From contig CAYSCT010000012.1 in assembly GCA_964429845.1 (NCBI GenBank), positions 18,412 to 82,411 on the forward strand: 64,000 bases of DNA, given 5' to 3'. Under the pieces are notes generated by a model. It made no database searches and had not been told where the DNA came from. It saw only the letters and a list, made by a program, of their open reading frames with translations. This stretch comes from an uncultured Ohtaekwangia sp. GTDB taxonomy: Bacteria; Bacteroidota; Bacteroidia; Cytophagales; Cyclobacteriaceae. Below, one piece after another: positions 41,857-47,810 of the stretch. The translations under genes were made by a program, and so were the position numbers. Numbering within the stretch: position 1 is the stretch's first letter; the number at the start of each line of letters is the position of its first letter.

Positions 41857-42504
41857 CTAACGCCACCCTTGTTCACCCAATAGCGGCACGAAAGCAAAGT
41901 TGTCGAACGTCTCTGTGGTGAGCTTGCCCTTTCTTTTGGTGATGCGGAGCATCTTTTGCGATTCGCGATTGCCCACTGGGATGATCATGATACCGTTATC
42001 GGCCAGTTGGTCGGTGAGGGCCGTAGGCACGATGGGTGCACCGGCTGTTACAATGATTTTATTGAAGGGCGCTTTTTGCGGCAAACCTTTCGAACCGTCT
42101 CCCTGAAACAAAAACAACTTGTAGCCCAACAGCGGCAAGAACGCCTTTGTTTTTTCGTACAACTTTTTGTTGTATTCAATGCTGTAAACCGTAACGCCCA
42201 TCTCAGCAAGTATGCAGGCCTGGTAACCCGAGCCGGTGCCTATTTCCAGCACTTTGTCGCCTGGTTGTAGCTCCAGTTTTTCCGTTTGAAACGCCACCGT
42301 GTAGGGCTGCGAAATGGTTTGTCCTTCACCTATCGGAAAGGCTTTGTCTTCGTAGGCGTGGTTCAGCAAGGCATTGTCGAAGAAGAAATGCCTCGGAACT
42401 TTGCCCACAGCGTCTAAAACGCGCGTGTCGCGGATGCCTTTTTCTTTCAGCTTTTTTACCAGTTTGTTGCGCAAACCCCGGTGTTTGTAGTTGTCTTCGA
42501 GCAT
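41857..42504 (-). CDS. pcm: Protein-L-isoaspartate O-methyltransferase
   Basis: GQTISQPY, LEIGTGSGYQA, IIVTAGA, FVPL; start set at ATG 42504. Confidence 0.95.
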   Translation of the reverse strand: MLEDNYKHRGLRNKLVKKLKEKGIRDTRVLDAVGKVPRHFFFDNALLNHAYEDKAFPIGEGQTISQPYTVAFQTEKLELQPGDKVLEIGTGSGYQACILAEMGVTVYSIEYNKKLYEKTKAFLPLLGYKLFLFQGDGSKGLPQKAPFNKIIVTAGAPIVPTALTDQLADNGIMIIPVGNRESQKMLRITKRKGKLTTETFDNFAFVPLLGEQGWR

Positions 42505-42517
42505 GTGCCTTTTTAAG

Positions 42518-42733
42518 ATTTCCACACAGCCTTGTGGATGGTTTGTGGATTAAAAAACTCTGTTTCCATGCGAAAAAACGGCTTTTTGAGGGCTTTGCAA
42601 AGTTTTATAAAATGTTTAGGAAAAATGAAACTGATCGTCCTAATTTAGGGTTCTCATACACACAGTAAAAGCTTTTTGCCATAGCGTAAAACTGTGTTAA
42701 ACCTGACCCTGACAGTAGGTGGTTTTTACCACA
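42518..42733. other. Cluster of six DnaA-box-like 9-mers in a non-coding region (candidate oriC or DnaA-regulated site)
   Basis: Near-matches to TTWTNCACA at 42518(+), 42533(-), 42544(-), 42654(+), 42693(-), 42725(+); AT-rich stretch at about 42595-42630. Confidence 0.35.
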
Positions 42734-42769: not shown

Positions 42770-45469
42770 TCAATTACCGATTAAGATGAAAGGCGCCCAA
42801 AAGTAGGGGTCTGCAAAGTGCTTTTCCTGAATCATCTTCTGTTTGGCTTTCTGAAGGGCTATTTTGTAATTACCACCTGGGTCGGCCAACAGAAATCGGT
42901 AAAAATCTGTCATCAATTGGGTAGTAGATTCATCGGCCACACTCCAGAACGATACCACCAGGTTTTTGGCACCTGCATAAACCAAAGCACGCGAAAGACC
43001 AATAACACCTTCTCCTTTCGATACCTTTCCCAAGCCGGTTTGGCAGGCAGATAATACAGCCAGATCTGCAGAGAGCGACAGATTGTAAATTTCTCCGGCA
43101 TATAAATTACCATCTTCATGGTTATCTGTATTAAGGAATATGCGCGACAGCTCCGGGTTACGTTCGTCTACAATGCCATGCGTTGCAAAGTGTAAATATT
43201 TATACTGACTAAGATCTGTTTGTTTGATGGTTGTTTCGCTTGCCTGGGTGTGCGTTACCACATCGCTTTGGTTTCCAAAGAGCAATGAAATGGTGTTTAC
43301 CTCTATTTCGCTTCCAGGTAAAAATCCAAGCCCATTGTTGTTGGTAAATTCCACCGGGGCACACAAGAAAATAGATTTTGAATTTTGCTTGCCTTGTACC
43401 TTGGCCTTTTGCAAAAGCAAACCTGCCGAGAATTCGTAGCTAATGCCATACCTGGTAGCCAGAAAAGACTGTGACGCAAAATCGCCTTTTACTTTTTTGA
43501 TAGGTAACGCTTCAAAGGGTAGCGTAGCCAAGCGGCCCGCAGGTAGTAACGTAACTTCTGTTATGCGGGCAGGTAATGGAGGCACCAGCAATTTACGAAG
43601 CCGATCGGCCGTTTGGCTATAGGCATCGAACGAACGGTAATACAGGCTGTTCATCCAACCTTTCGCCAATCGCTCGAAGTCGGTGGGGAGGGCGAGGTTG
43701 CGAATACGGAAAGCGTTTCCCGTAAGGATGAATTGATACAGCCGCCCGGTTTTTTCTGCTACAAAGTAACTTATAATGGCCTGCTGCTCCTTAAGGGAGC
43801 TTTGAAGTTCAGCGATGGTGGGGGCCGTTGAATTGAACTTCAGATTGTAGTAGTTCGGAAATTCACTTTCCAGCCTTTTAATAAAGTTGGCATAGTCAAT
43901 ATTCAGTTGAAAGAGGGTTTCTCGCAGGTATTTTTCTTCTTCCGCATTGGGTTTACCACTTAACTTCTGCGATAAGAAGGAAATGGCAGCCTTCAGATTT
44001 TTTTCTTCCTCCAACAAAGCTGCCGGTATCCCTGAAAAGGATTTGGCCTGTGTATCAGCTATTGATTCCTGCAATACAGCCGATTTACTTTTCTCGGCAA
44101 AATAAAAAGCTTCATTGATATACTTTCGTTTGTCTAAAACTACATCGGTGATCTCAAGCGCAATTCGGACACCATCTTCATATAGTTCTGTTGCAAGTTC
44201 CCCCAAGGATAATTTGTCACTTTCGTTTGAACTTTGGTGTCGTAGATTATCGATTAGTGTGTCGCAAGAATGAAGACATTTGATAGCGAACTTTAAATCA
44301 TTCAAACTTAGCGTCATAGTAGCATAGCGTATTTCTAAAGCTTTAGCCTTATAAAGAAAAGAATACATCAAAGCTCTTGCATTGTAATAGCCAGATGTTG
44401 CTGGATTAATTCTGCTGTCCATTGTATTGAAATTAGGGACATTAGCGATCATTGCCTTTTGATAACACATCATTGCACTATCAATATCATTCTTACTTAC
44501 ATAAACGTTGCCAAGTAAATTAAACGCATAAGCGAGATCCGGACTTTTGGTTCCAAAATGCATTGAATAGATATCGATAGCTTGTTGTATAAATTTAGTT
44601 GCTGATTGTGGTTTTTTGACACCGAGATACGATCTACCTAAGTTAGTAAGCACAATCGCTTGAGAGGGATGCGGATTGGGGTAAATAGATTCCCAAACTT
44701 TTAGTGCACGCTCAAAATGAATTATCGCATCTCCATAAAGGTTTTGTGACAGATATGCAATGCCAAGATTTGTATTAATAACAGCAATCTTCGGATGATC
44801 TTGACGATACAAAGAGGAATAGGCTCCTAACGCCATTTCATAATAATCAAGTGCCTTGTTGGCATCTATTTCTAAATAAGCGAGTCCCAAATCGTTATAA
44901 GAAGCTGCAATCAAACTCACATTATTTGGGGCTTTCTCTTTCCTTATTGCCAGCGCTAATTGTAGCTGTTCAACAGCTTTTGAATAGTTACCAACTACCA
45001 CCAAAGTATTCGCTAATAATGACAATGCATTTGCGGTCTCGAGACCATTTTCCTCTTTCATAAGGATAGGTATTGCCTCCTCTAAACTATCAAGTGCTAT
45101 ATCTGACCTACCTTTGTTCATGTTTAGGTAAGCAATAGTACATTTCAGAAGCGCTGTATTCAATTGCTTTTGATCAAGATTTGGAAGAAGACTTTTTAGG
45201 TTCTCAATTTGAATTTCAGCTTCATAAAGTAGCCCAAGTTGGATTAATGCAAGTGCTTTTTTATTATTCAAAAAGAATGTTAGCTCTCCATTTATTTGCT
45301 CAAATCTGTCAATCTCGGAGATCGCAAGTTCATATTTCGATTCAAAAAGTAATTGTTCAATGCGATCCAAGGCTTTCGTATGGTTGTTATCCTGTCCGTA
45401 AACTGCGTCCTTTGCTAGGAAACTAATCAAGAAAATTGCTACTAACTTTAAGATTCGTGGATAACTCAT
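42770..45469 (-). CDS. Exported TPR-CHAT (caspase-like, peptidase C14/CD clan) protease
   Basis: Signal peptide MSYPRILKLVAIFLISFLAKDAVYG-Q; kinesin-light-chain-type TPRs (HPKIAVINTNLG); CHAT dyad LHFATHG and LSACQTG intact. Confidence 0.92.
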   Translation of the reverse strand: MSYPRILKLVAIFLISFLAKDAVYGQDNNHTKALDRIEQLLFESKYELAISEIDRFEQINGELTFFLNNKKALALIQLGLLYEAEIQIENLKSLLPNLDQKQLNTALLKCTIAYLNMNKGRSDIALDSLEEAIPILMKEENGLETANALSLLANTLVVVGNYSKAVEQLQLALAIRKEKAPNNVSLIAASYNDLGLAYLEIDANKALDYYEMALGAYSSLYRQDHPKIAVINTNLGIAYLSQNLYGDAIIHFERALKVWESIYPNPHPSQAIVLTNLGRSYLGVKKPQSATKFIQQAIDIYSMHFGTKSPDLAYAFNLLGNVYVSKNDIDSAMMCYQKAMIANVPNFNTMDSRINPATSGYYNARALMYSFLYKAKALEIRYATMTLSLNDLKFAIKCLHSCDTLIDNLRHQSSNESDKLSLGELATELYEDGVRIALEITDVVLDKRKYINEAFYFAEKSKSAVLQESIADTQAKSFSGIPAALLEEEKNLKAAISFLSQKLSGKPNAEEEKYLRETLFQLNIDYANFIKRLESEFPNYYNLKFNSTAPTIAELQSSLKEQQAIISYFVAEKTGRLYQFILTGNAFRIRNLALPTDFERLAKGWMNSLYYRSFDAYSQTADRLRKLLVPPLPARITEVTLLPAGRLATLPFEALPIKKVKGDFASQSFLATRYGISYEFSAGLLLQKAKVQGKQNSKSIFLCAPVEFTNNNGLGFLPGSEIEVNTISLLFGNQSDVVTHTQASETTIKQTDLSQYKYLHFATHGIVDERNPELSRIFLNTDNHEDGNLYAGEIYNLSLSADLAVLSACQTGLGKVSKGEGVIGLSRALVYAGAKNLVVSFWSVADESTTQLMTDFYRFLLADPGGNYKIALQKAKQKMIQEKHFADPYFWAPFILIGN

Positions 45470-45541
45470 ATATCGATTGTGGGTTGTCAAATTACAAAAA
45501 TGCCTTAGTCAATAAATTTACTCATCTAAATTAATATTTGT

Positions 45542-45775
45542 ATGAAGATTTCTATTAGAACATTATTGCTGTCTGTGATGATTACGGCTGGTTATATAAC
45601 TACTGGTTGCGTTTGTAACTCCACAACCCGAACTGTTTATGGTGACAGTGGCGGTTGTAGTGACTCTGGGTATTGTACTCCGGGCGTGCCTACACCAATT
45701 TATCGAGAAACTACCACAGTATGTGAGGGCTGGTTTTCAACCACAACTTCTACTATTCGCGAGGAGATCAAATAG
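45542..45775 (+). CDS. 77-aa secreted or lipo-peptide, Cys/Thr-rich
   Basis: Basic n-region, hydrophobic h-region, TTG-C23 lipobox-like site; 5 Cys and 16 Thr; fills the whole gap between two genes. Confidence 0.7.
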   Translation: MKISIRTLLLSVMITAGYITTGCVCNSTTRTVYGDSGGCSDSGYCTPGVPTPIYRETTTVCEGWFSTTTSTIREEIK

Positions 45776-45784
45776 GCTCTATGG

Positions 45785-46714
45785 TCAGAATCGGTAAAAG
45801 TAGGTTACAGACGATACAAACTCGCGGGTAAGGCCATCGGGATTCACTTTGCGTTGAATGATTTTGTGGCCCAACAGTAGTTTAATTCCCGATTGTACAT
45901 TGAAGTTATAGCCCGTGGTAAAGATACCCGATAACGCCATCCCTTTGGCATCTGGAGACCTGGTAATAGAGCCATCTCCCTCTATGATTTGATCGCGTGT
46001 AATCCGGTAAATGGGCAACAATCCCAAAGAAAAATTGACACGCGAGAAGCGGAAGTTACGCTCTGCGCGCAGCATGACATCGGTGCCGCGCGTAAGCAGG
46101 TTGCCCTTGGGATATTTTTCGATATAGGCCATGTCTTGATCGCTGCCAGTCCAGCGGCTCCACAAAAACTGATTGTTGTTCTGGTTAAGCGGCACCTGTA
46201 TGCCCGTGGCGAACAACCACTTCCGGTTAATGAGCGACAGACCCGCGATGGCATCGTACGTGCCCAGGCTGGTTTGGTAATACATGGGCAGGGGGAACCC
46301 GTCAATGTCTTTGTCGGAATTGTTGGTTGGGATTTTGCCACCCAACGAGAGGTTCAAGTCAAATTGGTCGGACGTGAAGATATTGCGTGTAAAGCAGATG
46401 GAAATATCACCCATGCCAGAAGTGTTGGCTAAAGTTCCTGTAACAGCCTGATAGGGTAACTTGAGTTGGAATGTGTTACGACTGTTAAGGGAGAAGTTCA
46501 TATCTGCGGTGGCCACATAAATGATGGGTGTAAGGCTGGTGGTGCCCCTGTACAAGTTTAACTCCATCGAACGCAGCTTGACGGCTATTTTTTTGTTATA
46601 GGGCTGGTCGGGTTTCATGGCACCCATGGTGCAGAAGCCCGCATCGCTACAGCCTTGTGTCCAACCGAAGTGTGTTGCGAGGCAGAGCATCGAACACACG
46701 AGTATTTTCTTCAT
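45785..46714 (-). CDS. Conserved Bacteroidota outer-membrane beta-barrel with N-terminal CSDAGFC motif
   Basis: Signal peptide then Q-GCSDAGFCT; YQTSLGTYD; C-terminal TYFYRF beta-signal. Confidence 0.75.
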   Translation of the reverse strand: MKKILVCSMLCLATHFGWTQGCSDAGFCTMGAMKPDQPYNKKIAVKLRSMELNLYRGTTSLTPIIYVATADMNFSLNSRNTFQLKLPYQAVTGTLANTSGMGDISICFTRNIFTSDQFDLNLSLGGKIPTNNSDKDIDGFPLPMYYQTSLGTYDAIAGLSLINRKWLFATGIQVPLNQNNNQFLWSRWTGSDQDMAYIEKYPKGNLLTRGTDVMLRAERNFRFSRVNFSLGLLPIYRITRDQIIEGDGSITRSPDAKGMALSGIFTTGYNFNVQSGIKLLLGHKIIQRKVNPDGLTREFVSSVTYFYRF

Positions 46715-46829: not shown

Positions 46830-47810
46830 TTACATACCAAGAGACTGGTTTTCGATCGAAGCCAGTTCGATGATTTTTTCGTATTCGGTTGCGTTCAGAT
46901 CGTTGAAGAAGTAGTGGATGGGATTTACCTGGCCCCCGCTAATCAGCACCTCGTAGTGCAAATGAGGTGCGGTAGAGAGCCCCGTGTTGCCCACATAGCC
47001 GATTAACTCGCCACGCTTTACCTTCTGGCCTTTGCGAACGGCAAAGCCGTGCATGTGGGCGTAGCGTGTGCGGTAGCCAAAGCCATGATCTATCTCCAGC
47101 ATTTTGCCGTAACCACTAAAGCTTACCTGCACTTCGTCTACTATGCCATCGGCTGTGGCATAAATAGGTGTGCCAATGGGCGCTGCAAAGTCGATGCCGG
47201 TGTGCATTTTCTTTACCTTGTAAACCGGGTGCACACGCATACCAAAGCCAGAAGCCAATGCAATCAACTCTTTGTTGGCAATGGGTTGTATGGCTGGTAT
47301 GGCCGCGAAGAGCTTCTCCTTATTTTCGGCCAGTTGCACGATTTCATCCTGCGACTTTGACTCGATGTAGATTTTGCGTTTTAGCTTATCTACCGCTTCG
47401 CTCAACTGCACAATGGTTTCTTCGTGCACCATGGATTTGTCGCGTATATCTGCATAGCGGTCGGCCCCGCCAATGCCGGCATCGCGCACCGATTTTTCAA
47501 TAGGCTCCGCCCCCAACACCACCCTGTAGATGTTGTCATCGCGGTGCTCCATGTCGGCCAGAATGAGGTTGAGTTTGTCTACTTCCTTCTGCAGGTTTTC
47601 GTAGTAGTACTCCATCTCCTTTACCTCGTTGCGCAGAATCAGTTCTTTGGGCGACTCGAAATAGTTGTTGTACAGCAGCAGCAGACCCACGGCCAACCCC
47701 AGCACTAGCGAAAAGAAACCGAGGGTATTCAGAATGATGTCACCGGTAGAGGTGCGTACCCGCTCGTACTTACAGGTTTCGGTGTCGTAGTAGTATTTAA
47801 TCTTTGCCAT
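46830..47810 (-). CDS. M23 family metallopeptidase
   Basis: MHTGIDF, YAHM, STAPHLHYEV; N-terminal TM helix and coiled coil. Confidence 0.93.
   Translation of the reverse strand: MAKIKYYYDTETCKYERVRTSTGDIILNTLGFFSLVLGLAVGLLLLYNNYFESPKELILRNEVKEMEYYYENLQKEVDKLNLILADMEHRDDNIYRVVLGAEPIEKSVRDAGIGGADRYADIRDKSMVHEETIVQLSEAVDKLKRKIYIESKSQDEIVQLAENKEKLFAAIPAIQPIANKELIALASGFGMRVHPVYKVKKMHTGIDFAAPIGTPIYATADGIVDEVQVSFSGYGKMLEIDHGFGYRTRYAHMHGFAVRKGQKVKRGELIGYVGNTGLSTAPHLHYEVLISGGQVNPIHYFFNDLNATEYEKIIELASIENQSLGM

Follow-up and report, generated by a model that had tools for sequence, protein, structure and literature searches.

A predicted small exported protein shares the invariant Cys loop of a neighbouring outer-membrane barrel in an uncultured Ohtaekwangia sp.

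The locus and the shared Cys loop

The window, the whole stretch of 64,000 nucleotides that was analysed, carries on its minus strand a gene for an outer-membrane barrel of 309 aa (45785..46714, -), for which the ORF, an AF2 model and a Foldseek search together predict 12 strands and a FapF/COG4313-like fold. Upstream of it lies an M23 peptidase gene, the usual neighbour of the barrel on that side (46830..47810, -; Pfam E = 2e-34). On the other side, also on the minus strand, are a gene for a predicted exported TPR-CHAT protease of the caspase fold (42770..45469, -; ATG at 45469, which is the likelier start, or TTG further upstream at 45490) and a Protein-L-isoaspartate methyltransferase (PCMT) gene, which locus comparison showed to be a frequent downstream neighbour (41857..42525, -). 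Between the barrel and the protease, on the plus strand, lies an ORF of 77 aa (45542..45775, +), referred to here as the peptide gene. Its product (MKISIRTLLLSVMITAGYITTGCVCNSTTRTVYGDSGGCSDSGYCTPGVPTPIYRETTTVCEGWFSTTTSTIREEIK) is predicted to be an exported, probably lipid-anchored, Cys/Thr-rich protein.

The layout of the peptide is MKISIRTLLLSVMITAGYITTG-CVCNSTTRTVYGDSG-GCSDSGYCTPG-VPTPIYRETTTVCEGWFSTTTSTIREEIK. A signal peptide up to ITTG/C is followed by a mature part of 55 aa, which is rich in Thr and Ser and contains five Cys. The Cys loop GCSDSGYCTPG (45653..45685, +; peptide residues 38-48) is found in the middle of the mature chain and at neither end, and the loop probably sits on a tether of ~15 residues in a small exported protein, probably a lipoprotein. 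The barrel begins with MKKILVCSMLCLATHFGWTQ-GCSDAGFCTMG-AMKPDQ. Its mature N-terminus (QGCSDAGFCTMGAMKPDQ; 46604..46657, -) is conserved across homologues and includes the loop GCSDAGFCTMG (46622-46654, -; barrel residues 21-31). The original prediction, which was made without database searches, had placed the two loops at these positions, counted 8 of 11 residues as identical with S/A and Y/F at two others, and noted that the codons differ at most synonymous sites. All of this was confirmed in the two ORFs; the loop-coding DNA is identical at 20 of 33 nucleotides, and the third codon positions agree in 2 of 11 cases. In line with the further statement that the rest of the two proteins look unrelated, no similarity between the peptide and the barrel was found beyond a stretch of 22 residues. 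Within this stretch 11 residues are identical, so that a weak likeness flanks the loop.

The chance frequency of the motif, a check proposed together with the original prediction, was estimated in the six-frame translation of the 4.24-Mb genome (8.48 million residues). Both the full pattern GCSD.G[FY]CT.G and its core CSD.G[FYW]C were found in just two places, the peptide and the barrel, which are ~1 kb apart, and in no unrelated protein of this genome. We also searched the 97,251 six-frame ORFs of the genome with a 22-column profile built on the mature N-termini (residues 1-22) of 89 barrels. The barrel was recovered at E = 1e-16 and the peptide at E = 0.0054, and the next match had an E-value of 0.98. 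Since the motif is unique to two adjacent genes and the genome-wide profile E-values set these two apart, the likeness of the loops is not due to chance. One could argue that the match is short (11 residues) and that GC[SA]D[SN]GYC also occurs in unrelated eukaryote-like metagenome proteins, and hence that an unrelated small ORF happens to resemble the barrel. This explanation is hardly credible in view of the two neighbouring matches in 8.48 million residues, of the gap between the peptide and the next profile match, and of the conservation of the loop in the single homologue of the peptide (P0242, described below), which likewise lies beside a barrel.

The barrel family and its operon

The protease gene encodes a protein of 906 aa (42770-45490) with a signal peptide, a TPR array (TPR_12, E = 2e-37) and a CHAT domain (Pfam PF12770, residues 627-906, E = 5.4e-62, 210 bits against a cut-off of 24). 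The chain ends with the CHAT domain and therefore has no extra C-terminal sorting domain. The contexts of the catalytic His and Cys are intact, with HFATHG at 767 and SACQT at 814; HFATHG was present in all 113 long protease homologues and SACQT in 88 of the 113. From these features the TPR-CHAT protein is predicted to be an exported caspase-fold Cys protease.

We compared 80 genome loci from Ohtaekwangia, Chryseolinea, Chryseosolibacter, Cyclobacteriaceae, Flammeovirgaceae and Roseivirgaceae. The barrel and TPR-CHAT genes were linked in all of those whose contig reaches far enough, and the order M23 peptidase, barrel, TPR-CHAT was kept wherever the contig was long enough. In most of the 80 loci the M23 gene preceded the barrel gene, and the isoaspartate methyltransferase gene often followed CHAT. 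In 69 of 74 readable loci, -4 to +7 nt separated the barrel stop from the start of CHAT; in the remaining five, the script had chosen an earlier in-frame ATG for CHAT, and the two genes were coupled in 74 of 74. The CHAT proteins of the surveyed loci all begin with signal peptides. These results demonstrate that the barrel gene is translationally coupled to TPR-CHAT throughout this Cytophagales clade, and that the two genes form a tight, vertically inherited operon in a housekeeping neighbourhood rather than in a defence island. When the three proteins of the window, all of which have export signals, were compared with the PADLOC defence models, the only match was a weak generic TPR hit (E = 9e-4). 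Pairs of an exported CHAT protease with a FapF-like barrel are widespread in Bacteroidota, and a literature search for the barrel-CHAT pair found no paper. At two loci a gene of 177-191 aa with a match to PF25900 (PAPPA) is located between the M23 peptidase and the barrel (L164, 1374-1949; L165, 1216-1749).

The barrel family comprises 2684 clustered homologues, most of which are unnamed, and no Pfam or NCBIfam model matched it. PF13557 did not match the window barrel at E 0.1, nor 58 family members at E 1. Among the best 120 homologues, 119 barrels have a signal peptide followed by exactly GCSDAGFCTMG. In alignments of 58 and 89 barrel sequences, which include paralogues of 40% identity, residues Q20-G31 (except A25) and K34-Q37 are invariant. 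The 40%-identical paralogue, which is arranged in tandem with the main barrel in some genomes, has the N-terminus QGCSDSGFCTMGALKPDQ. In nine loci (L035, L037, L043, L053, L058, L069, L073, L074, L100) such a second barrel follows the M23 gene and precedes the main barrel, and it keeps the invariant N-terminus with one change (QGCSDSGFCTMGALKPDQ). The idea that the gap downstream of the window barrel holds what is left of a tandem barrel was rejected, as tblastn of barrels against 45440-45800 yielded the loop alone and the minus-strand frames are rich in stops.

The AF2 model of the barrel had 12 strands both with the signal peptide (pLDDT 85.6) and without it (pLDDT 90.0, pTM 0.82). About 25 mature residues precede strand 1 in the model. 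Residues 20-40 had a pLDDT below 50 in both runs, and this segment was left unplaced. In a Foldseek search against the PDB the top matches were FapF structures (5o65, 5o67, 5o68; E = 9e-12, TM 0.58-0.73), followed by the COG4313 channel Pput2725 (4rl8; E = 3e-10, TM 0.59-0.68), with autotransporter beta-domains and porins far lower in the list. A search for sequence relatives in the PDB found none. The models thus indicate a 12-stranded channel of the FapF/COG4313 type.

Distant barrels from other classes of Bacteroidota, which have varied neighbours and no CHAT gene, still begin with Q(G)CSDAG[FLVIA]C[TS]. Because these CHAT-less barrels retain the loop, it is a hallmark of the entire barrel superfamily, and the suggestion of the original prediction that the C-x5-C loop is a recognition epitope is not supported in the sense of an epitope specific for the CHAT protein. 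The extension TMGA[ML]KPDQ, in contrast, is confined to the branch of barrels that is linked to CHAT.

At four loci (L157, L159, L160, L162) distant CHAT-less barrels with the loop lie beside genes whose products, judged by the N-terminal sequences of these neighbours, resemble thioredoxin-like proteins, a cation-diffusion transporter and cytochrome c oxidase subunits. A connection with redox or metal chemistry may be suspected from such neighbours. Together with the invariance of the two Cys and the Asp, they could be taken to mean that the loops of barrel and peptide are a shared small-ligand site, in which C-x5-C and Asp form a metal site or a redox pair and which arose or was kept independently in the two proteins. 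However, the two loops also agree at Gly, Ser, Thr and aromatic positions, which would not be fixed by a metal site, the weak similarity of the flanks goes beyond the loop, and the genes beside the distant barrels are of diverse kinds. Moreover, two Cys that are seven residues apart in a periplasmic protein are normally joined by a disulfide. We regard a common ligand site as very unlikely.

A second peptide gene and a replaced low-GC tract

An exhaustive phmmer search of 1.84 billion representative proteins revealed a single homologue of the peptide, P0242, a protein of 82 aa that matches over the full length with 51% identity (E = 3e-14). Its layout, MKKIERRLLFLGLLLFVGLVFNG-CACNSETYSVYGAGSG-GCADNGYCTMG-AGGHDLIGYETVTTCEGWFHTTSTRSFEPIKK, shows that the homologue conserves the loop. 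The two proteins have 40 invariant columns, among them the GC lipobox, CxC, the loop and TCEGWF. Both have a signal peptide and all five Cys, and CxCNS, VYG and ET..TCEGWF are common to them. In both signal peptides the n- and h-regions are present and G-C is kept, but the lipobox is non-canonical, with T-T (TTG/C) and F-N (FNG/C) at positions -3/-2 against the consensus [LVI][ASTVI][GAS]C. Substitutions between the two genes are biased to synonymous sites (pN 0.36, pS 0.75, the latter saturated). No frame other than that of the peptide is open in both sequences; stops interrupt the antisense frames of the gap in the window and of L101. Taken together, these sequence comparisons indicate that the peptide ORF is a genuine gene under purifying selection.

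The contig that encodes P0242 (637 bp, 32% G+C) is laid out like the window. It contains the last 54 residues of a convergent barrel, which are 76% identical to the window barrel and 91% identical to the barrel of a Cyclobacteriaceae MAG, and at its other edge, on the opposite strand, a divergent start (MQKNFIVGLLLLFC) that resembles the signal peptide of the protease. Since the gene layout is repeated, the peptide gene is present in at least two diverged low-GC lineages, each time between a barrel gene and a presumed CHAT gene. Two peptide genes are known, one of them on this 637-bp contig, and co-occurrence statistics are therefore impossible.

Elsewhere the peptide gene was absent. No relatives were found in 5.8 billion word-indexed clustered proteins, in ~760 related genomes (61 close ones, 401 of the order and 301 of another family) or in a JGI metagenome scan. 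In the two closest relatives, whose barrels are 93% and 91% identical to that of the window, there is no peptide gene and the barrel stop overlaps the CHAT start. The expected co-occurrence of barrel, small ORF and TPR-CHAT was therefore seen for the barrel and CHAT only, in all loci reaching far enough, and a general three-part system can be dismissed. Several other candidates for peptide relatives were rejected. Two metagenome matches (L121, L122) were unrelated acidic or eukaryote-like proteins, and two further matches (P0243, P0244) were long repetitive proteins. Small ORFs of 70-104 aa that bear the motif in relatives were all barrels truncated by contig ends, or pseudogenes. A match with stops in G025 (L005) was a chance hit, off-frame within a large surface-protein gene. 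The operons whose TPR halves are nearest to that of the window (L164-L166) had no second peptide; an apparent gap of 286 nt in L165 proved to be a run of N inside the CHAT gene.

Alignment and the G+C profile delimit a tract at 44111..45784 that takes in the peptide gene, the intergenic region between the divergent starts, and codons 1 to ~460 of the protease, i.e., its TPR half. The tract has no nucleotide match to the closest relatives, and both of its flanks are 83-92% identical to them. G+C falls to 33-40% in the tract (36% in the TPR half, 43% in the peptide gene), compared with 50% in the window. The protease (42770-45490, -) is accordingly a mosaic with a breakpoint near 44110, in which codons 1-460 are a divergent low-GC allele. 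Its identity to the two closest relatives rises from 18-52% to 76-100% at residue ~460, while these relatives share 84-95% identity with one another across most of the TPR half. The TPR half of the window is at most 48% identical to any of 5.8 billion proteins; of the 50 positions with a conservation of at least 95% in the protease family, it nevertheless retains 45. The jump in identity, the low G+C, the unmatched tract and the retained family-invariant TPR positions all indicate that a divergent TPR half and a 294-nt spacer holding the peptide gene replaced the native sequence by recombination. Judged by this pattern, the peptide gene is a horizontally acquired import in this genome and a rare accessory, and the peptide and the TPR half arrived together. 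The ends of the tract lie in conserved sequence, in the 3' part of the barrel gene and in the middle of CHAT. A search for signs of a mobile element found no direct repeats and just two short imperfect inverted repeats, and no RNA families were found at the locus. If the genome is a MAG, it is possible that the tract is an in-silico chimera with a co-occurring low-GC relative, joined at the two conserved junctions. The trio of barrel, peptide and protease would in that case still be real, but it would be a property of the low-GC organism.

The rarity of the gene and its arrival on such a tract raise the question whether the ORF is a by-product without a role of its own, namely an inverted partial duplication of the 5' end of the barrel gene (signal peptide plus loop) that was carried in the low-GC lineage and then recombined into this genome. 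The loop is, after all, the hallmark of the barrel superfamily, a tract that ends in conserved barrel and CHAT sequence could have brought the ORF in passively, and neither a sigma-70 promoter nor the Bacteroidota consensus TAnnTTTG was found upstream of the peptide gene. However, two copies with 51% identity have kept the frame, the signal peptide, five Cys, the loop and TCEGWF, and the low pN beside a saturated pS and the stops confined to the antisense frames also speak against a role-free ORF, which makes this origin distinctly unlikely.

Known systems and the possible role of the loop copy

The closest described system is the Pseudomonas Fap system (FapF and FapD), which has the fold and the logic in common with the window operon and nothing else. 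FapF, the best structural match of the window barrel, is also a 12-stranded barrel, and the segment before its strand 1 occludes the lumen (PMC5557850); the corresponding N-terminus of the window barrel is the part that AF2 left unplaced. Both systems have a gene for a Sec-exported cysteine protease in the operon, next to genes for small exported proteins. FapD is a periplasmic cysteine protease that is needed for secretion (PMC5557850). The differences are numerous. There is no sequence similarity between the window barrel and FapF, and the window barrel lacks the periplasmic coiled coil, having ~25 residues before strand 1. The window protease is a clan CD CHAT protein with a TPR array, whereas FapD belongs to C39. 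The neighbours in the window are M23, TPR-CHAT and PCMT genes, and the amyloid genes FapA-C or FapE are missing. Finally, the N-terminus of the window barrel is predicted to form a disulfide loop where FapF has a helix.

COG4313 channels such as Pput2725 (PF13557, 4rl8) resemble the window barrel in being 12-stranded barrels of monomer size. A short N-terminal segment of ~14 residues is folded into the lumen of Pput2725 and occludes it (PMC4493636). One database labels an orthologue of the window barrel 'MetA-pathway of phenol degradation', yet the window barrel family is not PF13557 by sequence, and COG4313 proteins have neither a known protease pairing nor the QGCSDAGFC loop. Occupation of a barrel lumen by a lipoprotein polypeptide is known from LptE in LptD and from RcsF, which is threaded through OmpA/C/F. 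A small lipoprotein in a barrel lumen would be the point of likeness, and it applies to the hypothesis on the window peptide only; neither lipoprotein copies a segment of its barrel, and neither is homologous to the window peptide.

We propose, with a rough probability of 0.4, that the peptide is a trans-acting, free-standing copy of the barrel loop that competes for the binding site of the loop. By analogy with FapF and COG4313, the invariant disulfide loop of the barrel would be a lumen plug or gating element. The peptide would compete with the barrel's own N-terminus for one site, in the channel lumen or on the TPR array of the protease, and would modulate gating or processing, whichever the site. 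In the periplasm the protease may act on the channel or on its passenger, in keeping with the proposal for FapD and FapF. Because the loop is common to the whole superfamily, including its CHAT-less members, it is more likely to be the channel's own plug or gating element than an epitope for CHAT. Since AF2 leaves the invariant N-terminus unplaced, it is the fold analogy that suggests the plug role. Likewise, the lumen or another site intrinsic to the barrel is a more likely target of the peptide than a CHAT-specific one, because CHAT-less barrels keep the loop and because the peptide lacks AMKPDQ, the extension of the CHAT-linked barrels. The absence of this extension also weakens the idea, part of the original prediction, that the peptide is a decoy for the CHAT protein.

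A TPR ligand nevertheless stays under consideration, since the tail was not docked by AF2, since it is invariant while the barrel varies, and since the TPR half travelled with the peptide. The replaced tract consists of exactly the peptide gene and the TPR half, and the catalytic CHAT half and the barrel are native. The peptide and the TPR array might therefore be a matched ligand-receptor cassette, in which the loop mimic, shown to the TPR array, sets the action of the protease on the channel, and in which the peptide and its cognate TPR half are exchanged together between lineages by recombination, like the specificity cassettes of peptide signalling. Physical adjacency alone would give the same pattern, and the tract is one such event (n = 1). 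We consider a matched cassette unlikely.

The parallel with Fap also brings to mind that the peptide could be cargo or a substrate, and that the loop could be a recognition tag common to the channel plug and to a small protein that is exported or processed by CHAT. The barrel fold matches that of a polypeptide exporter, secretion depends on FapD, which may cleave a small Fap protein (PMC5557850), and the small Fap proteins that pass through FapF would be comparable with the peptide, which is exported, rich in Thr and Ser and encoded inside the operon. However, hundreds of barrel-CHAT operons have no peptide gene, so the barrel/CHAT pair must work without the peptide. The lipid anchor, if real, would speak against release, and within the mature peptide the motif is internal rather than terminal. 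A role as cargo is doubtful on these grounds, and competition of the peptide with the barrel's own loop remains the reading that we prefer. A separate possibility is that the barrel is dedicated to exporting the protease, so that the pair would be an autotransporter split in two. This idea comes from the resemblance of the COG4313 fold to autotransporter beta-domains (PMC4493636), which appear lower in the Foldseek list of the window barrel.

By analogy, a protease-partnered, plugged channel would be of a type already known, and the small accessory protein with a copy of the loop appears to be unprecedented. The mature N-terminus of the barrel is among the most rigidly conserved short segments of outer-membrane proteins that we have met, and the main interest of the locus is that it offers a handle on the function of this invariant loop. 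A natural free-standing copy of the loop within the operon is a probe for the partner of the loop, be it the lumen, the TPR array or a ligand, and can also reveal whether the channel is gated by the protease. Should the idea of a mimic be true, it would be a new mode of outer-membrane channel regulation; if it is false, the locus still documents modular recombination that swapped the sensor half of an envelope protease.

The insertion of the peptide gene (45470-45784) interrupts the translational coupling between barrel and CHAT that is universal elsewhere. As a consequence, the protease needs either its own promoter or read-through that is antisense to the peptide gene. An imperfect inverted repeat of 18 nt (45481-45498 with 45612-45629, 83% complementary) couples the CHAT start region to codons 24-29 of the peptide gene, and a transcript spanning the divergent starts could fold a hairpin from this repeat.
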